From a virus (taxonomy: Duplodnaviria; Heunggongvirae; Uroviricota; Caudoviricetes), in IMG/VR virus record IMGVR_UViG_2565956719_000002: a DNA stretch of 64,000 nt. One strand, 5' to 3'. Of the stretch, positions 9,550 to 60,063 are shown piece after piece. Each line of letters opens with the position of its first letter. The first letter of the stretch is position 1. The position numbers and the translations under genes are program-made. The notes beneath the pieces are model-generated. The model had not been told where the DNA came from, did not search any database, and worked only from the letters and a program-made list of their open reading frames with translations.

Positions 9550-10186
9550 CATGGTCCACCTCATGCTTTTCAGCCACCAGCGGCAATAAAGCCCTGGCCA
9601 TCTTATGAACCAATAGTGCATCAATAATGCCAAGCGTATGCCCCGGCTTAATGTTTAATGCCGCCTCAAGGTGACACCTTTCCAGGTCACTTTTCTCGGC
9701 TTGTTTATGATGATCTGGTGTAATAACGTCGCCCAAAACACGGCTAATTCTTTCTCGTAATTGCTGGGTGCCAGCACACTTGATCGCTGTATCGTGGAGA
9801 CGGTTAACCAGTTCGCGATAAACATGCGGCTTAATGCGGATACGTTCACCGGTGACGCCCTTTCCTGGCGCTGGCACCGAACTATCCGGAATATCCGGAT
9901 AGTTGCCAGCCTCGTAAGCTACCCACAGCCAGTGCATGAATGTTTCAGTGGACACACAACCACAGTCCACATCGATTTTTCCGCGTTGCTGTTCCAGCCA
10001 ATGCTCAAAATTCAATCTACACGTATTACTTTCATGTTGCTCTTTTTGTCTCAAGGCCAGCATCTGCTGGGCTATTTCCAATACTTCATCTGCCGTATAT
10101 CCAGCACCGTGACCATACATTTCGATACGGGAAATAATCTCTGATATGCGCTCTTCAGTGATTCTGGTCATTTCTTTTTGCGCCAT
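9536..10186 (-). CDS. hypothetical protein (216 aa)
   Basis: long ORF in co-directional array. Confidence 0.5.
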   Translation of the reverse strand: MAQKEMTRITEERISEIISRIEMYGHGAGYTADEVLEIAQQMLALRQKEQHESNTCRLNFEHWLEQQRGKIDVDCGCVSTETFMHWLWVAYEAGNYPDIPDSSVPAPGKGVTGERIRIKPHVYRELVNRLHDTAIKCAGTQQLRERISRVLGDVITPDHHKQAEKSDLERCHLEAALNIKPGHTLGIIDALLVHKMARALLPLVAEKHEVDHANES

Positions 10187-10542
10187 TTCTTTTCACATTC
10201 CTTAGTCCATTTTTCAATGTTCATTTTGGCAATATCAGTCATTCCATCACCTAAGAAATACTTTTTCCGGTACGTCTTGCACTTAAACCACACTACAACA
10301 GCCACCAGCCAGAAAATAAAAGGCCATACGGCAATACCAACTCCAGCCGCGATAAAGCCCAATATCCATAAATGAAGCTCTCCAACTTCTGTTTCCGGCA
10401 ATATTCTTAAAGAATTAAACAGCAGGCTGAACGAATGGTCGTATGCATTGGCAGTATAAGACATGCAATCCATATAATTAAAGTCATAGCCTGCGGCTGC
10501 CGCCCATAATGGGCGGTCAAGAAAATGTTTTAGTGTCATCAT
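10168..10542 (-). CDS. hypothetical membrane protein (124 aa)
   Basis: hydrophobic segments, lysine-rich C-terminus. Confidence 0.4.
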   Translation of the reverse strand: MMTLKHFLDRPLWAAAAGYDFNYMDCMSYTANAYDHSFSLLFNSLRILPETEVGELHLWILGFIAAGVGIAVWPFIFWLVAVVVWFKCKTYRKKYFLGDGMTDIAKMNIEKWTKECEKKWRKKK

Positions 10543-49452: not shown

Positions 49453-50298
49453 TCACCCTCTGAATCCTGCCGGTATACCCCATTGTTCGTTATCTTTATT
49501 TTTGGCTAAAACCGCATTAAGAGCTTCGTTTACCGTCATGCAATGCGGCAGATTATCGAAGTTTGATACCCCGCCAATATCAGGAGAACGCTTGTTCTTC
49601 AGGTAAGCATATTTCCGCGCTGCCGCCTCTACCTTCTGCTTGAACTCATGTTTTTGAGCGCGTTTTTTGGATAACCGCAGATTGTCAGCCTTTGCTTTTG
49701 CCTCAGCGATCCATGAAGTCAATTTTTTGAGTCTGGTCGTTCCGGCACCGCCGGAAACTGATCTTTTTGTTTTTTTAACTTGTGACTTCTTATTCTTTAT
49801 TGCCACGTCATCCTGACAGGGGGAGGGGGTATCATTTTGACATGGGGGTGTGGATAAAAAATTAAATAAAGCCAATGTCTTAGCGAGAACAGCTTTAACC
49901 TTGGTTGCCGCTGAAGAGATCTTTAATTTGCTTTCAATCAGCGCATTTTTGGCTTGTTGTGCGAAGGCCAAAAAGGATGGTGTAAACCGGTACAGGTTAG
50001 CGCGACGTTCACGGTGATCGCCGATAACAATCTCTACAGACAGAATTCCTTTGTTTACAGCTTCACGGAATGCACGAACGACGGTTGATTGGCTATAACC
50101 AGTTTCTGCCGCGATCAGGCGGTGAGGCTTGTGAATGAAGTATTCACTGGTTGTTGCCGCGAGATTTGCACATTGCGACAGGATATGCCCGGCGCTACGG
50201 GATAGACCGGAGTGTGTTACAAAGCAGGCCAATTCATAGCCAGAAAAAGTAAAATCGCTCATCGTTATACAGCTCAGGAAAGTGACTTTAGCCAGCAT
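49453..50298 (-). CDS. repL: lytic replication protein RepL (281 aa)
   Basis: length and position downstream of kilA match P1 RepL; HTH-like segment. Confidence 0.8.
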   Translation of the reverse strand: MLAKVTFLSCITMSDFTFSGYELACFVTHSGLSRSAGHILSQCANLAATTSEYFIHKPHRLIAAETGYSQSTVVRAFREAVNKGILSVEIVIGDHRERRANLYRFTPSFLAFAQQAKNALIESKLKISSAATKVKAVLAKTLALFNFLSTPPCQNDTPSPCQDDVAIKNKKSQVKKTKRSVSGGAGTTRLKKLTSWIAEAKAKADNLRLSKKRAQKHEFKQKVEAAARKYAYLKNKRSPDIGGVSNFDNLPHCMTVNEALNAVLAKNKDNEQWGIPAGFRG

Positions 50299-50327: not shown

Positions 50328-51128
50328 TTAGCGCTTAGCCGCGACAGGTACCAGCACACCAGCATCAAGCAATCGCTTCATCAGCCACTGCTGACCTTTG
50401 CCGGTTATACGAGTCGTGAAAGAAATCCTGCTTCCATTGCTTGTATCGATCACGGTTTCTTTGAGGGTGAAGTACCCACGGGATATGTATTCTTGTTTGG
50501 GGACGTTCCTGCGTTCACCGGTTGCGATCAGAATTCCGTTATCACGCAACCAGGTGAAGAGATAGTTTTGGCCCAGGCCGAGCACTTTGGCATAGTTGCC
50601 GATTAGAACCCCGCTGGCGGTAGCAACGCGTTCGGCGAATTCGACTTTAGGTGCATCCATAAGCATTTTTTGCTCCAGCCGTTGCTTTTGCTCTGCCAGG
50701 TCGGCAGCCAAACGGAGAGCTTCAGGGAGACTCTGCGGAATAGCAGGTTGTAATCTTCCGGCTCGATAGTCGATAAATGTCTGGTTTACCTTCAGCCGAA
50801 ACGCGGGAGAAATCCAGCCTGCGTACTCCACAGCGAGCAATTCATGGGCAAAAGTGCCGCCGCCACGGCCTTCGAACGAAACTATGCAATTCTGCATAGT
50901 TTCTTTTTCAAGCTCTTCGATGAGCTGTTTGGCTGACAGCGTTCTTAGCCATTGAGCTGGCGCTTTATGGGCACCGAGTCCGCTCGCTCTGTGTAGAGCA
51001 TTAAGGTTGTAACGGCCAGCGCGGTCGGTCGTAATTTCAACACCACAAATAACAGGCAGAGTGGTTGAAGGATCGACATTTTGATGAAGGTTTGATATAT
51101 TCATATCCGCATTGAATGTTTGTTGCAT
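50328..51128 (-). CDS. kilA: KilA (KilA-N plus KilAC domains, 266 aa)
   Basis: C-terminal region paralogous to the Ant KilAC domains; 266 aa as in P1 KilA. Confidence 0.8.
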   Translation of the reverse strand: MQQTFNADMNISNLHQNVDPSTTLPVICGVEITTDRAGRYNLNALHRASGLGAHKAPAQWLRTLSAKQLIEELEKETMQNCIVSFEGRGGGTFAHELLAVEYAGWISPAFRLKVNQTFIDYRAGRLQPAIPQSLPEALRLAADLAEQKQRLEQKMLMDAPKVEFAERVATASGVLIGNYAKVLGLGQNYLFTWLRDNGILIATGERRNVPKQEYISRGYFTLKETVIDTSNGSRISFTTRITGKGQQWLMKRLLDAGVLVPVAAKR

Positions 51129-51292: not shown

Positions 51293-52336
51293 TTAACCTA
51301 TTGCTACTGGTTTTAACAAACCAGCATCAAGTAGCTTGCGAGTTAACCACTGCTGGCCTTTACCCGTTAATTGGGGCGTCAGCCGTATCTGGTAGCCATT
51401 TTCATCATCCAGTACCACTTCTTTCACCGTGAAATACCCGGCGTTGATGTACTGTTGGCGCGGTACGTTTTTGCGCGCACCAAAAGCCATGAGAATGCCG
51501 TTCTGGCGCAACCATGAGAAAAGGGCGTTTTGCTTAAGTCCAACGACCTTTGCAAAGTTCCCGATCAGGATTCCATTGGCCACTGATACCCGGTCGGCAA
51601 AATCGACTTTAGGGGCTGCGGCCACCAGCTGTTGTTCCAACTGCATTTTCTGTTCTGCTAACTCGGCAGCCAGGCGTAGGGCTTCTGGTAATGTCTGGGG
51701 GATCGATGGGGTAGGTGAGTTTGCCTGCTGCAATTCTTCCAGTTTGTCGATCAGCGAACGGCGGACGGCTTTTGATTCGCGTGCGGCGACTCGCAGGGCT
51801 TGTTTGTAGGTCATGGTTATGACAACCATAGGCGTACCGCCACCTGGCGGCACGGTTGCACTTTTTGTGTAACCGTCCTCACCTTCTAATTCGTCGAGTA
51901 TTTTTTCGATGAATTTGTTGTTCCGAACCTCTGGTTCCCCACATAACTTACGCGCTTCATTGACCATCTTTAACAGTGTCAGGCTGTCGATTGTGTCTCC
52001 GGTGTTGGGGATGATATTCACGGCTGGTGCTGGCGTAGCTGACGTAACAGGTGCTGTTTTTTCAACATTCAAATTATTACCGGTCATTCTATGTGCCTCC
52101 TTTCTCATTTCTGCTGCCACTGTTGCGTAACGTAGACGTCCTTGTTCAATCAAATAATCCCTGATCTCGGCTATCAGTAGCTTGTTGATCACAGCCTTAT
52201 CTGTTCGGGTATAAAAACGTCTGGTTATCATGAAATAGTTGGCAATTGCGCCGGGGATCTCCCGTGTCGGCATACAGGCAGTATGCAGGGCGATCGCTTC
52301 GGCTATGTCATTACGGGTGACGAGAGGTTTTTTCAT
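51293..52336 (-). CDS. ant: antirepressor Ant, second copy (347 aa)
   Basis: N- and C-terminal thirds about 80-90% identical to 1229-2344; different central domain. Confidence 0.8.
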   Translation of the reverse strand: MKKPLVTRNDIAEAIALHTACMPTREIPGAIANYFMITRRFYTRTDKAVINKLLIAEIRDYLIEQGRLRYATVAAEMRKEAHRMTGNNLNVEKTAPVTSATPAPAVNIIPNTGDTIDSLTLLKMVNEARKLCGEPEVRNNKFIEKILDELEGEDGYTKSATVPPGGGTPMVVITMTYKQALRVAARESKAVRRSLIDKLEELQQANSPTPSIPQTLPEALRLAAELAEQKMQLEQQLVAAAPKVDFADRVSVANGILIGNFAKVVGLKQNALFSWLRQNGILMAFGARKNVPRQQYINAGYFTVKEVVLDDENGYQIRLTPQLTGKGQQWLTRKLLDAGLLKPVAIG

Positions 52337-52554
52337 AAACCCCCCTGAACGTCGGCAGAGAAGGGGAGGCTCCAGTAACTAAGTGGATTGCGCGAGTTAG
52401 TTGAAAAACGGGCAGTAAAAATGCAGGGGCCGTCAGGCAATTGAGAGCGTGCTTCGTCTTCTGTTGCTGCGATAACGAAGTGATAGTGGTGTTTTTTACA
52501 GGAATAGAAACGCCAGATGAATTCTTGGCGTGCGCAAGGATTGGCATTAACCAT
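52333..52554 (-). CDS. icd: Icd-like small protein (73 aa), second copy
   Basis: paralogue of 2341-2562; coupled to ant. Confidence 0.45.
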   Translation of the reverse strand: MVNANPCARQEFIWRFYSCKKHHYHFVIAATEDEARSQLPDGPCIFTARFSTNSRNPLSYWSLPFSADVQGGL

Positions 52555-52868: not shown

Positions 52869-52885
52869 AAATTTATTAGAGCATT
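52869..52885 (-). promoter_or_regulatory. C1 operator-like site (AATGCTCTAATAAATTT, 16/17)
   Basis: motif upstream of the second ImmI module. Confidence 0.55.
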
Positions 52886-52981
52886 GTTTGTTTAATAAAT
52901 GCACAATTGGATCTAATAACCTCTTTTTTTTAAAGGCGAAAATATGTACCCTAAATGAGTTATAAGGCAGGTGAGGTTATA

Positions 52982-53629
52982 ATGAGAAAACTATTACTAC
53001 CGTTATTATTTATGGCTGGGACTGTTAATGCAGCATCAAGCGTAAAGGAGATTTGTACCGATTATACGAAATACCTTGGGCACGTTTACGGCTTTGCTGT
53101 CAGTCAAGACGAATCCATGCGCAAGAAGTTACTGTCAGATATGAAACGCCTTAAACTTTCTGAAGCGATGGTGCAGCAAGAACTGTATAAAGTCGCAACC
53201 AACGAAAATGCTAAATATCAATATTCTCGCCTGTTAAATCCCGACGCAAACGAGATCAATCGAAGCTCTTTCGATTATATGGTAAAGGCATGCGAAACCG
53301 CTCCTGATTTTGCTATTCCTAGCTGGGGTGTGCTGGTGGCGAGCAATGCCGTTAATAAAGAAGACGTTGGAAGAAATGGCATTGACTCAATCAGAAATGC
53401 CCCTGGAATGCGCCATCAAAACGTGCAGGGTACGCTTGAAGAGCGGGCCAGGGGGCCGGGTACAAACTCCCCAATGGGAAACCTCTCACCAGAGGAATTG
53501 CAAGAGTATAACCAACGGATGGAGCAGTATGAGAAAGCGGCACGCGAACAAATGGAACAACAAAAGAACGGCTCACTTAATACCTTTCAGCAAGGTTTAA
53601 AAGCGCTTAATTTACCATATGAATGGTAA
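52982..53629 (+). CDS. secreted protein (signal peptide MRKLLLPLLFMAGTVNA)
   Basis: signal peptide; start moved to MRKLLL; shares VQGTLEERARG segment with the sit-like protein. Confidence 0.45.
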   Translation: MRKLLLPLLFMAGTVNAASSVKEICTDYTKYLGHVYGFAVSQDESMRKKLLSDMKRLKLSEAMVQQELYKVATNENAKYQYSRLLNPDANEINRSSFDYMVKACETAPDFAIPSWGVLVASNAVNKEDVGRNGIDSIRNAPGMRHQNVQGTLEERARGPGTNSPMGNLSPEELQEYNQRMEQYEKAAREQMEQQKNGSLNTFQQGLKALNLPYEW

Positions 53630-53690: not shown

Positions 53691-54167
53691 ATGCGCATCA
53701 AACGATTTTTTCTAATTCTTGCTTTGCTTACTCCATTTTCATCAATGGCAAATGTAAGCAAATGGTCAACCGGCGAGACTCATGGTGTTCGTTCTTATGC
53801 TGTTTCCAGCAAAGATAATTATACGCTTACATTTGAGTGCGATGTTGGATTTAATAATACGGATCCCAATCAAGTAGGAACACGACTACTCACTCTCATG
53901 AAAACAGAACCTGGCGGTGAGTCATTTGATGCTAAAAAAGAACAAATAACGCTGAAAGTTGGTGATGATGAATATCCTATAAGTTCTATCGGTTCCTCTG
54001 TGGGTGATAGTTACTGGTATGGTTTTTGGTCAGATACCCCTGATATGGAAGTAAAAACATTCGATGCATACGTAGACGGAAAAAAAATCGCAACATTTAC
54101 GCTACGTAAGGCCGCAGAGCTTTTCAACGCGGCACCTGAAGATGGCTGCCTGAAGCGCGCAAAATGA
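53691..54167 (+). CDS. secreted protein (158 aa)
   Basis: signal peptide MRIKRFFLILALLTPFSSMA; AGGAGA RBS. Confidence 0.45.
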   Translation: MRIKRFFLILALLTPFSSMANVSKWSTGETHGVRSYAVSSKDNYTLTFECDVGFNNTDPNQVGTRLLTLMKTEPGGESFDAKKEQITLKVGDDEYPISSIGSSVGDSYWYGFWSDTPDMEVKTFDAYVDGKKIATFTLRKAAELFNAAPEDGCLKRAK

Positions 54168-54176
54168 CCTGTCACA

Positions 54177-54195
54177 AATGACTACTCGTAGAATC
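54177..54195 (+). promoter_or_regulatory. candidate late-type promoter AAATGACTACTCGTAGAAT
   Basis: 16/19 identical to 22778-22796; followed by inverted repeat CGTAGAATC...GATTCTACG. Confidence 0.35.
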
Positions 54196-54201
54196 GGTTA
54201 A

Positions 54202-54792
<591 letters not shown>

Positions 54793-54802
54793 GGGGGCTG
54801 AT

Positions 54803-55414
54803 ATGGGGCTTAATGTTGCTTCAGTAAAGTCTTATGTATCTTCGGCATTAACGACGACATTATTTGGCTCCGGCGTTGGTGAGCGGGAAGTTGGCAAGCT
54901 GACGTCAATCATCATGAACAAAATGCTGTTCGCGCAAGGATGGCAGTTCTCTGTCGAAGTTGATGGTCTGGAGGGGGCAGACTTCTTTGCTAAAGACATT
55001 ACCTACCACGATTACAGCATCGAATATGAAACGATTAAAATCGGCGGAGGGAATATCCTTCAGCCAACGGAGCGTTCGCCTGGGCAGATAACAATGATGG
55101 TCAGGGATACCGTTGATGGCCTCGTTTTGGACTGGTTTAAGACGGCAAAAAGTCGGGTGATCAATCCGGACGGTACCGGGAATATACCGTCTAAATATTT
55201 GCTCAATGTGCGTATTTATCGGTTGCTGTCCTCCGGTTTAACCAAACTGGAAAATGAGATGACGGTATTCCCGGTCACTACCGGCGATGTCACCTATGCG
55301 CGGGATCAGGTTACGGAATTTAAGTCATTCCCAATGACCTTCGCGTTGCACAGCACGTTTAACCAATCCTCAAGTTCTTTAGCTTCCCTTCTGGGCTTTA
55401 GTTTTTCGCTTTAA
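54803..55414 (+). CDS. hypothetical tail-module protein (203 aa)
   Basis: ORF in tail operon. Confidence 0.45.
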   Translation: MGLNVASVKSYVSSALTTTLFGSGVGEREVGKLTSIIMNKMLFAQGWQFSVEVDGLEGADFFAKDITYHDYSIEYETIKIGGGNILQPTERSPGQITMMVRDTVDGLVLDWFKTAKSRVINPDGTGNIPSKYLLNVRIYRLLSSGLTKLENEMTVFPVTTGDVTYARDQVTEFKSFPMTFALHSTFNQSSSSLASLLGFSFSL

Positions 55415-55428
55415 ATTAAGGAGCAAGG

Positions 55429-56310
55429 ATGCTTTTACCCCTTTTCCCGCTACCATCGCGGCCAACTGAATTAATCCAGTTCCGTCAGCCAAATATTGCT
55501 GATGCGATGCGTTTCAACTCGATAACACCGGAGGAACAAGAACAGCAGACAACAGCGTATTTAAAAGCCTTGCTGGCTGAAGCTGCGAAACATGATCCAC
55601 TGAAATGGACGGCACAGGACCGGATTACCGCGTTATGGTGGATATTTACTGGCTCCCGCGAAACACCGATCGAGACATTTACCTACACCTGTAAACATTG
55701 CGGTAAAGAGCATTATTACGATTGCGATATGAATGCTCTGGCTGAAGATATCCAGGTCCTGGAAGTGGAACCGTTCATTGACGATATTGAGGTGTCTGTA
55801 GAGGGCGTGCCTTATCAATGGCGTATCGTGCCGCTTGATGGTTGGGCAATGGAAATGCTGGAGATGCGCCGAGCAGCATTGCCACCTGAAGACGACGCGG
55901 AATTCAAAGAAGCGATCGTTGATTTGCGTTTTTGGGAATTCGCTTATCAGTGTGAACTTTATAACGATGTTAGCGGTACTCGTGAAGAGCAGGCTGAGCG
56001 TCGTTATGAAACGATCAAACGGATGGCCATTGATACTGAATTTATGAAGCTGGCGGCACACATCCGGCTGGCTCATGAAAAGCTCGAACATGGTTTACCG
56101 TGCTACATCGATAAAGGCGAAATGCGTCTTCGTCTCCCGCCGCACAAATGCCCAAACCAGGATACAAAGGAGTCCACAGAGGGTGCGTATACCCGTCTGT
56201 GGGTGCCCTTTCGGGCTACCGACTTCATTCCACAGGTGGGGATTGAAAAGCTATCAGACCTTAGTGTCCAACCTGGTTTTGTATGGGGGTATACCGATTC
56301 AGGACGCTGA
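55429..56310 (+). CDS. hypothetical protein upstream of tape measure (293 aa)
   Basis: ORF; 3' end overlapped by an alternate-frame ORF running to 56380. Confidence 0.45.
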   Translation: MLLPLFPLPSRPTELIQFRQPNIADAMRFNSITPEEQEQQTTAYLKALLAEAAKHDPLKWTAQDRITALWWIFTGSRETPIETFTYTCKHCGKEHYYDCDMNALAEDIQVLEVEPFIDDIEVSVEGVPYQWRIVPLDGWAMEMLEMRRAALPPEDDAEFKEAIVDLRFWEFAYQCELYNDVSGTREEQAERRYETIKRMAIDTEFMKLAAHIRLAHEKLEHGLPCYIDKGEMRLRLPPHKCPNQDTKESTEGAYTRLWVPFRATDFIPQVGIEKLSDLSVQPGFVWGYTDSGR

Positions 56311-56391: not shown

Positions 56392-59300
56392 ATGGAAAGA
56401 AAAAACGCCAATATTGACGATGTTATAAGGACAGTTGAAACCGCCAGCGCGAAAGAGCTGGAAGAGCTTGCAGGTATTCGGGAAGCTGTTGAAGATTTGA
56501 AAGGGGAACGAGTTGCAACTGTTGATCCTGTCTCTCGCAGTGTGTCGGCATTAAATCGCACAATCGAAAATTCACGTCCTGACTTTGTGACCAATGTGCC
56601 ATCAGTGGACTCTATTGTTGACGCAATGAAACGGCTTAATTTAGGGGACGTTTCTCGTATACGGGAGGACAAAGTCACTAACCGTGAACAGCAGGCTGCA
56701 CCAACAGCGCACAATCCCCCAAATAGACGAAGAGAGGCAATAACAGAGGATGTTAAAGCACAGCGGTTAGAAACGGTCAAACTCGCTCGTGATTTGAAAG
56801 GGGAACGCGTTGCAACGGTTGACCCAGTATCTCGCAGTGTGTCGGCATTAAATCGAACAATCGAAAATTCCCGGCCAGACTTTGTGGCCAATGCGCCATC
56901 AGTAGACCCTATTGTTGACGCAATGAAACGGCTTAATTTAGGGGACGTTTCTCGTGTAGTTCAGGAGGGCATTGCTCAACAGGAACAGCAGGCCAAATCA
57001 ACTACACCAAAGGGTAAAAAAAGACGCAGGAAGGCTATATCAGAGGATATAAAGGCACAACGGACCGAAGCAGCCGAACACGCTCGCGAAATGTTCGATC
57101 AAAAAGGCGGTGCGCAAAAAAGCCAAAACCAACGCGATGCGCGTGGTCGTTTTATTGGAAAGTCAGGGAGTAAGGCCGCAGCGGAAGATGCCCGTGCTGA
57201 ACGTGCTGAAAAGGCCAGGCGCAAAGAGGATGATGAGCGTCTAAATGCTGAATCAGGTTTATTAAAAAAACTGTCAAAAGTAGCTGAAGGCATAGGTAAC
57301 CCTTCAGAGACTCGTGCCGTCGATGCGTTAGGTTATGCCGTTGCTGGTCCATTGTGGGCAGCAGGGAAGGAGCTTGGCGGGATATCAAAAGAAGTTGGTG
57401 GATCGCTTAATGGCGCCAGAAAGTCTATTGCCGATGTGATTCGTGGCAATGACGATAACAGCCGTAGAAAAGGTTTTTTTAGGCGTAAATCGCAAAATAG
57501 TGCCGATGTCGTTCAGGTTAACACCCAAAAACGGACGGTTCAGGAACTTCAGGATCAGACCAGCGAAATTAAAGAGGGCAATGACAAGATTCTCAGCGCC
57601 CTTGATCAGATAGCCAAAAACACCGGGAAAAAGAAGGGCGGCTTGCTGTCCAAATTATTTAGCCTGTTAGGGAAGGGGGCCGGTGGCGTCGCGTCGTTGT
57701 TAATGGGGCGTGGCATGCTGAAAAAAGCTGGAGCACTCGCTTTTGGCGCTCTGGGGGCAAAGAAACTTGTAGGAATGCTACGCGGTGGTGGCAAGAAGAC
57801 TATCGCCCATGAAGGTGGAGATTTGGCTGCCCGGGCAGCAGGTAAATTTGGATTAAAGGCAGTTGGTAAAGGGGCGTTACGCGCAATTCCCTTAGTCGGC
57901 ACAGTGGCTGGAGGTATTTATGATGCGGTAACCGGTTGGAATGATACAGAAGCGCAACGTCGAGCGTTTGGGCTTAAATCAGGACAAGAGCCATCATTCC
58001 AGCAAAAAGCCGCTTATACGTTAGCTAATGTTCTTGATATGGGGGGACTGGTATCTGGTATTAGCAGCGCCATTGGTGAGGTTCTCAAATCACTTGGATT
58101 TGAGGATATCGGCAATATGTTGCAATCATTTTCGACGGAAAGTATTGCCCTGGCCATTGATAGTGGGATTACCAACTTAGAAACATATATTTCTAACCTT
58201 GGCGACACCATTTCTACCAAGTTCGATGATTACACAGCAAAGATTGGTGATGCTGTTTCAGCATGGTTTAGCGATACATCTAATAAGCTGCTTGAAAAGC
58301 TGGATGCCATCAAAGACTTCTTTACTGTCGATAACCTGAAACAGGTTTTCAGTGATGCAATTGATAGTGCAATTGATTTCATTAAGAACCCAGGGAAACA
58401 CATTAAAGAGGCGGCTGGTAATATTTGGGATGGGGTTAAAAATTTACCAGGTAAAGCATTAGATGCAGCGGTTGATGCCGTTAAAAATACCCCTGCGGCA
58501 ATGATTGTATCAAAAATACCCAATCCGATCGGCGAGGCTAATGCGAAAGAAATCACTCCAGAGTTAAAAGCTCCGGTTAATAGCCACCAGGGGACATCTG
58601 ATTCTAAAACTGAATCCGATGCCAAACAGACTAATATTGCTGCCCGCGTGATAAATGCGGCTCTGGATATGGCGAAAGATAGCAATAAAACAGTTAAAGA
58701 AACTGCTAATCAGATTATCAATGCAAATGCCGTAGAAACAGGAAATAAAGCAGCACAAACAATTGATGCTGCCTTGGGGCAGTCTGCTACAGGTAAGGAG
58801 GAAGCATTAAGTGCATATGAGATAGATAAACGTCGATTTAACAATGGCAAGGATGTTTCTTTGCCAAAATTAAATGCTGCCGGATACCAATGGATTTCTG
58901 ACAATGCCGATTATTTTGATGAGCTTGAACGTAAGTATGGGCTTGAAAAAGGGATTCTGTCAGCAGTTGCATCCGCAGAGTCTAGTGCAGGCCAGAGAAC
59001 TGGAAATCCAGTAGACAAAAACGGGAACAAACTTTCATCTGCCCTTGGGGCTTTTCAGATCACTAAAGGTACAAGGGAGGATCTTGGACTCAGCGATGCT
59101 GATGCCATGGATACACGAAAAGCAGCTGATGGTGCCGCCAGATACCTAAGTATGCTGATGAACCGTTATAACGGTGATCAGGGGCGTGCAATAGCTGCCT
59201 ATCATGCTGGTATGGGGCATGTTGATAAGGGGAGAGTAGTCGCAGGTACCGGCGAATATGTTACTCGTGTCAGAGGGTATCAGCAGATGCTCAATAATGG

Positions 59301-60063
59301 TGCCGTTTATGGCTCTAAGGTAGATCATAGCGCACCAGCAATTTACGAAAAGATACCTGATAACGCCGTTATCGATCAGTCTACTGGCCTGGCGTTTACC
59401 CCTGGTGATAGCCCGTTTGAGAAAGGCGGTCTGGTAGACAAAATCGGCAATGCTGTTGGCGTTAACGATCTGGTCAACAAATTCATGAATGGCCGGGGTA
59501 TGCGTCGGGAAGTCGTTCAGGGAACCCTCGAAGAACGTGCACGAGGAAGGGGAACCGCAACGGCAGCTGGCAATGTGTATGTTGATACACCTATGCCAGT
59601 TGAAGAGGCACGTCCGGTGGCCAACAACTCAAGTTACTTTGACCAGCTCGGCGCACAAATGGGGATTGATGGACTGTATGACAAACTCATTAATGCCCGG
59701 GGAATGCGCTCAAATAATTCTCCTCAACCAGCTTCCACGTCCCAGATGACGACTGTCGCCAACGATTTGCAGCAACCAACCGGTCGTATGCAGATAGACG
59801 GGCAGGTTATTAGTGACCTTGGCGGTTCCGGTGCCAAGCCGACAATGCAGTTGGCTGATAATACCGTTTCACTTGATGGTGAAACGAAGCGGCTGTTTGC
59901 GCAGATGACCTCATTGCTTGCCAGGATTGAAGAGCACACCAAAGACTCGGCGAAAGGCCAGGGAACTGTCGTAAAGGTCAGCACGCCTCAGCCGGGCGTT
60001 ATGCGCACGGTACCACTGTCAATTGATGATCCGTTGATGAATGACTACGCGAGAGTTGATTGA
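56392..60063 (+). CDS. sit: tape-measure-like injection protein with lytic transglycosylase domain (Sit-like, 1223 aa)
   Basis: SLT-type motif AESSAGQ...GAFQITKGT...AAYHAGMG; Gly-rich membrane segment; internal 99-aa tandem repeat. Confidence 0.8.
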   Translation: MERKNANIDDVIRTVETASAKELEELAGIREAVEDLKGERVATVDPVSRSVSALNRTIENSRPDFVTNVPSVDSIVDAMKRLNLGDVSRIREDKVTNREQQAAPTAHNPPNRRREAITEDVKAQRLETVKLARDLKGERVATVDPVSRSVSALNRTIENSRPDFVANAPSVDPIVDAMKRLNLGDVSRVVQEGIAQQEQQAKSTTPKGKKRRRKAISEDIKAQRTEAAEHAREMFDQKGGAQKSQNQRDARGRFIGKSGSKAAAEDARAERAEKARRKEDDERLNAESGLLKKLSKVAEGIGNPSETRAVDALGYAVAGPLWAAGKELGGISKEVGGSLNGARKSIADVIRGNDDNSRRKGFFRRKSQNSADVVQVNTQKRTVQELQDQTSEIKEGNDKILSALDQIAKNTGKKKGGLLSKLFSLLGKGAGGVASLLMGRGMLKKAGALAFGALGAKKLVGMLRGGGKKTIAHEGGDLAARAAGKFGLKAVGKGALRAIPLVGTVAGGIYDAVTGWNDTEAQRRAFGLKSGQEPSFQQKAAYTLANVLDMGGLVSGISSAIGEVLKSLGFEDIGNMLQSFSTESIALAIDSGITNLETYISNLGDTISTKFDDYTAKIGDAVSAWFSDTSNKLLEKLDAIKDFFTVDNLKQVFSDAIDSAIDFIKNPGKHIKEAAGNIWDGVKNLPGKALDAAVDAVKNTPAAMIVSKIPNPIGEANAKEITPELKAPVNSHQGTSDSKTESDAKQTNIAARVINAALDMAKDSNKTVKETANQIINANAVETGNKAAQTIDAALGQSATGKEEALSAYEIDKRRFNNGKDVSLPKLNAAGYQWISDNADYFDELERKYGLEKGILSAVASAESSAGQRTGNPVDKNGNKLSSALGAFQITKGTREDLGLSDADAMDTRKAADGAARYLSMLMNRYNGDQGRAIAAYHAGMGHVDKGRVVAGTGEYVTRVRGYQQMLNNGAVYGSKVDHSAPAIYEKIPDNAVIDQSTGLAFTPGDSPFEKGGLVDKIGNAVGVNDLVNKFMNGRGMRREVVQGTLEERARGRGTATAAGNVYVDTPMPVEEARPVANNSSYFDQLGAQMGIDGLYDKLINARGMRSNNSPQPASTSQMTTVANDLQQPTGRMQIDGQVISDLGGSGAKPTMQLADNTVSLDGETKRLFAQMTSLLARIEEHTKDSAKGQGTVVKVSTPQPGVMRTVPLSIDDPLMNDYARVD

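Follow-up and report, generated by a model that had tools for sequence, protein, structure and literature searches.

The window analyzed here, i.e., the whole 64,000-nucleotide (nt) stretch of IMG/VR record IMGVR_UViG_2565956719_000002, belongs to a P1-like (Punavirus) phage-plasmid. Beside its immunity region lies a gene (nt 52982–53629) for a small protein with an export signal, and this protein carries a peptide of about 30 residues that is also present in Sit, the tape-measure protein encoded further downstream. By its sequence, the gene is an intact simA-type gene, of which phage P1 keeps only the beginning, and its product is not a member of the SimC family. We propose, with a probability of roughly 0.4, that the protein is a periplasmic superinfection-exclusion factor which competes with incoming Sit for a partner through the shared motif.

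A peptide shared by an exported protein and the tape-measure protein Sit

The two copies of the peptide are GMRHQNVQGTLEERARGPGT, at amino acids (aa) 142–161 of the open reading frame (ORF) beginning at 52982 (nt 53405–53464), and GMRREVVQGTLEERARGRGT, at aa 1036–1055 of Sit (nt 59497–59556), and they have 16 of 20 residues in common. A longer match pairs NAPGMRHQNVQGTLEERARGPGTNSPMGN (aa 139–167) with NGRGMRREVVQGTLEERARGRGTATAAGN (Sit aa 1033–1061) at 19 of 29 identical residues, and BLASTP with compositional adjustment aligns the exported protein to Sit over 47 columns at 49% identity (E = 1e-8), which puts the shared segment at about 30–45 aa. The Smith-Waterman score of the pair is 100; none of 1000 shuffles reached it (mean 40.2, standard deviation 5.7, maximum 66), and a Gumbel fit to the shuffle scores gives p ~ 8e-7. 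Residues 129–171 of the exported protein also match the Sit family profile phrog_2533 at its positions 929–972 of 1130 (E = 8e-8).

An earlier sequence-only reading of this DNA had pointed out the module at these positions, had proposed a pairwise alignment to define it, and had allowed that the similarity might be limited to low-complexity sequence. The observation was correct and is stronger than stated; the module is not of low complexity because its 20-mer contains 12 distinct residues. The second ARGMRS that had been noticed some 60 residues later in Sit is found as well, within NARGMRS at aa 1101–1107, 68 residues past the first copy. What that reading missed is that the protein is the full-length version of P1 simA and that the universal core of the module, on the family alignment, is just N-x-x-G-M-R, to which the window protein adds VQGTLEERARG-x-GT. 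Its interpretation, i.e., a common partner or processing site and a possible role in exclusion, is reasonable and unproven.

The codons beneath the peptide have diverged. The 19 identical motif residues share four codons in total, one of which is the unique ATG for Met, and of the 18 identical residues with synonymous codons, three share a codon. In four other lineages the peptide is likewise kept with the motif DNA at 52–62% nucleotide identity. The similarity of the peptide, kept with diverged codons in five lineages, therefore argues for selection on the peptide, and a recent gene conversion or DNA copy is ruled out. In one Salmonella phage-plasmid (L078; here and below, labels with L stand for loci and labels with P for proteins), the simA-type gene and sit agree at 19 of the 21 nt with which the motif starts (NSR[GS]MRH), whereas the other lineages have different codons all along it; this stretch of L078 may be a local micro-conversion. 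In both proteins the segment looks like a short linear motif, i.e., a conserved island in disordered or indel-rich surroundings.

A motif profile was built from the two window segments and searched against 1.84 billion representative proteins. It retrieved only Sit-type tape measures and simA-type proteins, short fragments included, plus one 376-aa tandem-repeat protein (P0034) that matches LEERTRGHG only, in six repeats, and was judged spurious. Two divergent proteins also came out of the search, P0036 (NAPGMRHQAVKGSMAERARGDGT) of the simA type and the Sit protein P0035 (NAPGMRHQVATGSMADRAYGMGT); genes for close relatives of the two lie about 13 kilobases (kb) apart on one IMG/VR contig, IMGVR_UViG_2871745582_000001 (L087 and L088).

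The exported protein as an intact member of the simA family

The exported protein matches the family profile phrog_3933 along its entire length (aa 1–215 against positions 1–213 of 213, E = 5.3e-137). Its homologs fall into 28 clusters, 45–100% identical, on P1-like contigs of about 90 kb from Escherichia, Salmonella, Klebsiella, Enterobacter, and Cronobacter, and the source databases label several of them "simA domain protein". With tblastn, the P1 simA locus aligns to aa 1–48 of the exported protein at 85% identity (48 aa), and the DNA of the window and of P1 is nearly identical from 52783 to ~53095, i.e., through the C1 operator Oc4, the predicted promoter PsimA, and the start to about codon 38. 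P1 SimA (P1_gp043, L001 2052–2210), annotated as a "putative superimmunity accessory function", has the same promoter/operator region and start codon and an identical signal peptide, but it stops at 52 aa and has neither the helical domain nor the Sit-like motif, whereas the window gene is complete with 215 aa. Because the DNA identity with the window gene ends at about codon 38 and the tblastn match covers aa 1–48, P1 simA is best read as a 5' remnant of an intact gene, the rest of which was replaced by the simB-simC insertion. P1 SimA, with its signal peptide and some 20 mature residues, is probably nonfunctional. This would correct the reading of P1 simA, from an accessory gene to a truncated remnant.

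Among the 69 IMG/VR loci recovered, 24 have the P1-type remnant and 45 a longer simA-type gene (intact or truncated past the motif); a scan of a genome collection contributed four more loci only. In PLSDB, 125 plasmids bear the window's cassette (81 of them with at least 80% of the cassette covered), and among the matches listed its genes are annotated as "hypothetical protein" or "simA domain protein".

The linker that holds the motif is variable in length and sequence across the family, with the exception of N139 and R144, which are invariant, and G142, M143, and Q146, which are nearly so; this core stays invariant among homologs that are just 45–66% identical overall. The continuation V-[QE]-G-[ST]-L-x-E-R-A-R-G, as in the first motif copy of Sit, occurs only in a subset of simA-type proteins, and the others have a P/S-rich stretch as in the second Sit copy, followed by one or two Cys-containing modules. 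At 13 loci the protein stops directly past the motif, ending in ERARGPGVAP, with the N-terminal domain and the motif kept and the remainder lost. Judging from these alignments, the unit kept throughout the family consists of signal peptide, helical domain, and the N-x-x-G-M-R core.

Translation probably begins with the ATG at 52982, which yields 215 aa, has GGTGAGG 5 nt upstream, and agrees with the RefSeq call in phage Ro157c2YLVW. The length of 224 aa given in the sequence-only reading is obtained from an alternative ATG at 52955; its description of the product as secreted fits the sequence, which begins with a classical Sec signal peptide, and the predicted mature part has two cysteines, C25 and C104, that are invariant in the family alignment. 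The cleavage context, MRKLLLPLLFMAGTVNA followed by ASS, comprises an n-region with RK, a hydrophobic core, and VNA before the A, and N16, A17, and S19 around the predicted cleavage site are invariant across the simA-type family. The predicted cleavage site lacks a lipobox cysteine, no hydrophobic helix is present beyond aa 17, and the AlphaFold2 model is a soluble helical domain, so a membrane anchor by lipobox or transmembrane helix is not predicted.

In the AlphaFold2 model, the helical domain is confident, with a predicted local distance difference test (pLDDT) score above 90 over aa 21–120. It is followed by a linker (aa 131–170, pLDDT 46–56) that holds the motif, itself at pLDDT 46–48, and by a long C-terminal helix that in relatives is swapped for Cys-containing modules or missing. 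Structure prediction, which had been proposed as a check, led to no informative fold match. A PTP-like phytase assignment (PF14566) was rejected: the score is below the gathering threshold, the CX5R loop is absent, and the model is all-helical.

Two minor observations concern the C-terminal part. The protein ends in LNLPYEW (53615–53626), i.e., with an aromatic Y-E-W, and the unrelated DUF5384 protein that phage P7 encodes in the same slot (P0013) ends in SSWW; an aromatic C-terminus may be an envelope recognition signal. Two 205-aa variants (P0002 and P0008), seen in Logan assemblies only, shift directly past the motif to the +1 frame (ORF 53310–53600 in the window), with the switch at a run of C at ~53465–53480, within AACTCCCCAATGGG. 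These could be sequencing errors or real frameshift alleles.

The motif copies in Sit

In P1, Sit is accepted as the tape-measure protein and is essential (PMC9024508, PMC10695390); it could not be resolved in the P1 cryo-electron microscopy structure (PMC12810830). In the window it has an SLT domain (PF01464) at aa 841–946 (E = 2e-14), and its C-terminal 240 aa are ~98% identical to those of P1 Sit. The motif comes after the transglycosylase domain and before the conserved C-terminus. An SLT domain, hydrophobic or glycine-rich segments, and the conserved C-terminal domain of Sit are all missing from the exported protein; only its aa 129–171 match the Sit profile, and the module of 30–45 aa is all that it shares with Sit/phrog_2533 tape measures.

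We aligned the Sit C-termini of the window, L046, L050, L052, L078, L080, and L082 with that of the P1-type L047 (six distinct lineages). The conserved block reads ...TG-L-A-F-T-P-G-x-S-P-F-x-K-G-G-L-V-D-K-x-G...K-F-[ML]-[NS]-x-x-G-M-R-x-x-x-V-Q-G-T-L-x-[ED]-R-A-[RY]-G-x-G, and copy 1 of the motif stands out as a conserved island in each of the divergent Sit proteins that we examined (L046, L050, L052, L078, L080, L082, and L088). Directly past the motif, Sit is indel-rich, and its last ~110 residues are conserved again. The half-copy 2, IDGLYDKLINARGMRS (aa 1092–1107), sits in a 43-aa insertion specific to P1-group Sit proteins and shares its upstream context with copy 1 (VNDLVNKFMNGRGMR vs. 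IDGLYDKLINARGMR, i.e., h-x-D/N-K-h-x-N-x-x-G-M-R). Its alleles NARGMRSNNSPQP and NSPGMRKNNAPEP both keep the N..GMR core, which takes the form N[AS][RP]GMR across P1-group alleles.

Just past the SLT catalytic core (~59200–59350 in the window), Sit is a mosaic of two types, one with IAAYHAGMGHVDK (the window, L078, and L082) and one with ITAYNAGFGTINKWK (P1, L004; L080, L046, L050, and L052). The motif variant in Sit (ERARG or AERAYG) is not correlated with these two SLT-distal types.

The cassette and its variable slot

The gene for the exported protein and the partner gene after it fill exactly the slot of simA-simB-simC in P1, between Oc4/PsimA and the late promoter LPsit, and are divergent from c4-icd-ant, in agreement with the sequence-only reading, which had placed the pair divergent to the immunity module at the position of P1 sim. 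The stretch from Oc4 to LPsit is variable region 4 of P1-like phage-plasmids (PMC9603915), and in a three-way DNA alignment, the window, P1, and P7 turn identical from ~54174, at LPsit. P1 has simA'-simB-simC in this exchangeable slot, P7 a lipoprotein and a DUF5384 protein, and the window and phage Ro157c2YLVW the present gene pair. The P7 cassette is unrelated to the one studied here, and neither its outer-membrane lipoprotein nor its DUF5384 protein contains GMR. Because it lies upstream of LPsit and next to the C1 operator, the cassette is outside the tail operon.

A third type of cassette is found in L031–L043 (e.g., L038 9974–12258), where the simA-type gene is truncated directly past the motif; after it come a divergent 168-aa YfjT-like gene and a 394-aa gene, for whose product a C-terminal SH3_3 domain scores borderline (26 bits; cut-off 27).

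The partner in the window is a 158-aa, beta-rich protein with a signal peptide and invariant C50 and C153. PF27224 (YfjT) is precomputed for all 16 of its homolog clusters and for the neighbor genes in L078–L082, and the protein belongs to phrog_3429; a local Pfam scan of the 158-aa sequence returned no family. It shows no fold similarity to PliC/MliC or Ivy (periplasmic lysozyme/transglycosylase inhibitors), and our literature search found no functional literature on YfjT. In the window, L052, L080, and L082, the gene directly after the simA-type one is of the YfjT type; in L078 there is one extra gene between the two, and in L038 the YfjT-type gene is present in divergent form. Obligate pairing of the two genes was rejected, as no YfjT-type gene lies beside the divergent simA-type homolog in L087.

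The L087 simA-type gene (10001–10528) is not beside pmgC/sit, being ~13 kb away, and retains the motif. Next to it are genes for small, unrelated exported proteins and for a DnaB-like helicase, and a large ORF that resembles a methyltransferase. The related contig L086 has upstream structural genes and a pmgC-like gene with no cassette genes in between.

Comparison with known exclusion systems

Work by Kliem and Dreiseikelmann in 1989 and by Maillou and Dreiseikelmann in 1990 is said to have proven that P1 Sim/SimC is a superinfection-exclusion protein; to our knowledge, the mechanism of this exclusion is still unknown. SimC is encoded in the same slot between Oc4 and LPsit and also bears a signal peptide, and simA-C are non-essential for lytic growth (PMC10695390). 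We considered homology of the cassette proteins to SimC or SimB and found none by BLASTP or hhalign; for the 158-aa partner, neither program gave any similarity to SimC. SimC shares nothing with Sit, and therefore its mechanism need not be mimicry.

T4 Spackle (Sp) is a periplasmic inhibitor of the tail lysozyme gp5, and resembles the exported protein in being small, exported, and mostly helical; it acts in the periplasm on the cell-wall-degrading component of an incoming tail, as the exported protein might. It is not known to mimic its target, and the exported protein would be directed at a tape measure of the SLT type rather than at a gp5 lysozyme; no fold match between the exported protein and Spackle was obtained in the PDB and BFVD searches.

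Exclusion directed at the tape measure is known from Ltp of the Streptococcus phage TP-J34 and gp15 of HK97. According to PMC10883804, both are envelope proteins encoded by prophages and prevent the entry of DNA once the phage has adsorbed; their genetic target is the tape measure, and exclusion is escaped by tape-measure changes. Ltp is a lipoprotein and gp15 an inner-membrane protein, whereas the exported protein has no lipobox and no membrane helix past its signal peptide. Neither Ltp nor gp15 is reported to carry a copy of a tape-measure segment, and both come from siphoviruses, whereas P1 is a myovirus. We found no paper describing tape-measure mimicry by an exclusion protein in our literature search.

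Proposed function and alternatives

In the mechanism that we propose, the exported protein would reside in the periplasm of a lysogen. A superinfecting P1-type phage would expel Sit into the periplasm upon tail contraction, where the Sit motif would have to contact a partner so that the cell wall can be crossed or a channel formed. With the same motif on display, the resident protein would compete for that partner, and DNA entry would be stopped after adsorption, i.e., superinfection exclusion by tape-measure mimicry. The exported protein would meet Sit only in the periplasm, i.e., during superinfection. Exclusion via the motif is the simplest reading. We infer the periplasmic location, the expression in lysogens, the existence of a partner, and the exclusion itself. 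The significance of the motif, the selection on the peptide, the restriction of the motif to two families, the export signals and invariant cysteine pairs of both cassette proteins, and the position in the sim slot all point to such a role, as do the natural truncations, which retain the N-terminal domain and the motif. By analogy, Ltp of TP-J34 and gp15 of HK97, which act on tape-measure-dependent DNA entry, offer a precedent.

The Sit and simA-type motifs of the same element may also vary together. The L087/L088 pair has G-S-M in both proteins, where every other sequence has G-[TS]-L, and a permutation test on six full-motif cognate pairs gives p = 0.008 (23-mer) to 0.02 (29-mer). Because significance is reached only after adding the L087/L088 pair, we take the cognate covariation as suggestive.

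A number of points weigh against an exclusion role through the motif. With five full-motif pairs the permutation test is not significant (p = 0.07), nor is it with the 8-residue core (p = 0.07–0.11 for these two settings), and the window motif is closer to the Klebsiella-type Sit (22 of 29 residues) than to its own (19 of 29). The VQGTLEERARG half of the motif is not essential to the function of the family, because many members keep only N..GMR[HQ]Q. The profile search of 1.84 billion proteins, at its sensitivity, retrieved no host protein with the motif and hence no candidate partner. Between the exported protein and SimC, the best BLASTP hit has E = 28 and hhalign gives a probability of 0.1%, i.e., no homology; there is no PADLOC match and no meaningful NCBIfam match for the exported protein, and the predicted structures of both cassette proteins found no informative fold match in the PDB and BFVD searches. 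The phenotype of sim is reported to have been clear only from multicopy clones. Finally, the exclusion by the exported protein is deduced from sequence and position, and its expression in lysogens from PsimA, which the P1 annotation gives as a predicted promoter only.

Should the protein act as a decoy, i.e., should the prophage keep related phages out of its host with an exported protein that copies a short linear motif from their tape measure, which we regard as somewhat unlikely, it would be the first exclusion protein to mimic an injected protein, as far as the searched literature shows. The motif would then mark a contact that P1-type tape measures need in the periplasm for DNA delivery, and would be a handle for the entry partner of P1. 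How contractile-tailed phages such as P1 move their DNA across the periplasm and the inner membrane after expulsion of the tape measure is poorly understood, and a 30-residue motif is a defined, mutable target for the post-ejection role of Sit and a bait for its partner. The candidate exclusion system is present in at least 125 sequenced P1-like phage-plasmids, which are carriers of resistance genes (PMC9603915).

Exclusion could also come about by direct binding, in that the helical domain or the YfjT-type partner grabs the motif on incoming Sit and neutralizes it (e.g., its transglycosylase or its membrane insertion), with the protein's own copy as a pseudo-ligand or self-association element; we think this rather unlikely. 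Within the family, conservation is highest in the helical domain, which always adjoins the motif, a second exported protein is usually paired with the simA-type protein in the cassette, and T4 Spackle, which binds the tail lysozyme, would be a parallel. Ltp of TP-J34, which binds the tape measure (PMC10883804), would be another. Nevertheless, AlphaFold2 leaves the motif undocked on the domain with a pLDDT below 50, the motif variant does not follow the two SLT-domain types of Sit, and the divergent homolog in L087 has no YfjT-type partner next to it. A further reading, to which we give little probability, takes the cassette as a lysogenic-conversion module that acts on the host envelope (stress signaling or cell-wall association) rather than in exclusion, with the motif as a generic envelope or peptidoglycan anchor that Sit uses as well. 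This would suit the unrelated envelope proteins in the P7 slot, the YfjT homologs of a cryptic E. coli prophage, for which no role related to phages is known (per the Pfam family name), and the aromatic PYEW end of the exported protein; yet the restriction of the motif to the Sit and simA-type families favors a P1-specific interaction over a generic anchor, and the weak cognate covariation likewise does so.

The motif might instead be a processing site, at which one protease, periplasmic and of the host or encoded by the phage, cuts both Sit (in tail maturation or after ejection) and the exported protein, releasing its domain from its tail. Proteolytic processing is known for tape-measure proteins elsewhere (lambda H and T5 pb2), the motif lies in exposed, disordered inter-domain linkers of both proteins, and in natural variants of the exported protein the sequence stops or a different module sets in directly past it. 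However, tails are built in the cytoplasm and the other protein is exported, so a shared protease could act only in the periplasm after ejection; a conserved stretch of 30 residues is long for a cleavage site; and no processing of P1 Sit is reported in PMC9024508 or PMC12810830. The chance of this explanation we put as slim. Least probable of all, and very much so, is a functionless relic, i.e., a sit fragment captured by illegitimate recombination in a recombination-prone slot and merely carried along. The slot is indeed a mosaic hot spot, with breakpoints at codon ~39 in P1 and directly past the motif in L031–L044, but synonymous sites are largely randomized with the peptide kept in five lineages, the core is invariant across homologs of 45–66% overall identity, and the motif is retained where the gene has moved ~13 kb from sit.

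Gene order and features of the window

The features of the exported protein and of Sit, and the genes around the cassette, are collected in Table 1.

Table 1. Coordinates of genes, protein segments, and regulatory sites in the window
Feature	Coordinates (nt)	Strand	Basis or remark
repL	49453–50298	minus	named by comparison with annotated P1, P7, and Ro157c2YLVW records
kilA	50328–51128	minus	named via annotated P1, P7, and Ro157c2YLVW records
ant1	51293–52336	minus	named via annotated P1, P7, and Ro157c2YLVW records
icd	52333–52554	minus	named via P1, P7, and Ro157c2YLVW records; the c4 region also lies on this strand
C1 operator Oc4	52869–52885	minus	coordinates transferred from the P1 annotation
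Promoter PsimA, predicted	52891–52917	plus	transferred from the P1 annotation, itself a prediction there
simA-type gene (215-aa exported protein)	52982–53629	plus	ORF list; divergent from c4-icd-ant
Sec signal peptide MRKLLLPLLFMAGTVNA	52982–53032	plus	read from sequence; predicted cleavage after VNA
N-terminal all-helical domain, aa 20–130	53039–53371	plus	invariant C25 and C104; orphan fold
Sit-like linear motif NAPGMRHQNVQGTLEERARGPGTNSPMGN, aa 139–167	53396–53482	plus	in predicted disordered linker
Variable C-terminal long helix, aa 170–208	53489–53605	plus	AlphaFold2 pLDDT 55–75; family alignment
Partner gene (158 aa, YfjT family)	53691–54167	plus	ORF; PF27224, phrog_3429
Late promoter LPsit, right border of the variable slot	54176–54194	plus	transferred from the P1 and P7 annotations
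pmgC	54226–54792	plus	named via P1, P7, and Ro157c2YLVW records
tub	54803–55414	plus	named via P1, P7, and Ro157c2YLVW records
pmgB	55429–56310	plus	named via P1, P7, and Ro157c2YLVW records
sit (1223 aa, tape-measure protein with lytic transglycosylase domain)	56392–60063	plus	ORF; pmgA and bplA downstream
Sit motif copy 1 NGRGMRREVVQGTLEERARGRGTATAAGN, aa 1033–1061	59488–59574	plus	BLASTP and motif comparison
Sit motif half-copy 2 IDGLYDKLINARGMRS, aa 1092–1107	59665–59712	plus	alignment of Sit C-termini

The 5' part of sit contains a 297-nt tandem duplication (1.9 copies, 81% matches) at 56494–57063, which makes Sit 1223 aa long in the window as compared to 1140 aa in P1. In related IMG/VR loci, the full-length sit reading frames (counted from stop to stop) mostly range from ~1108 to 1271 aa, and this length polymorphism may change the length of the tail.

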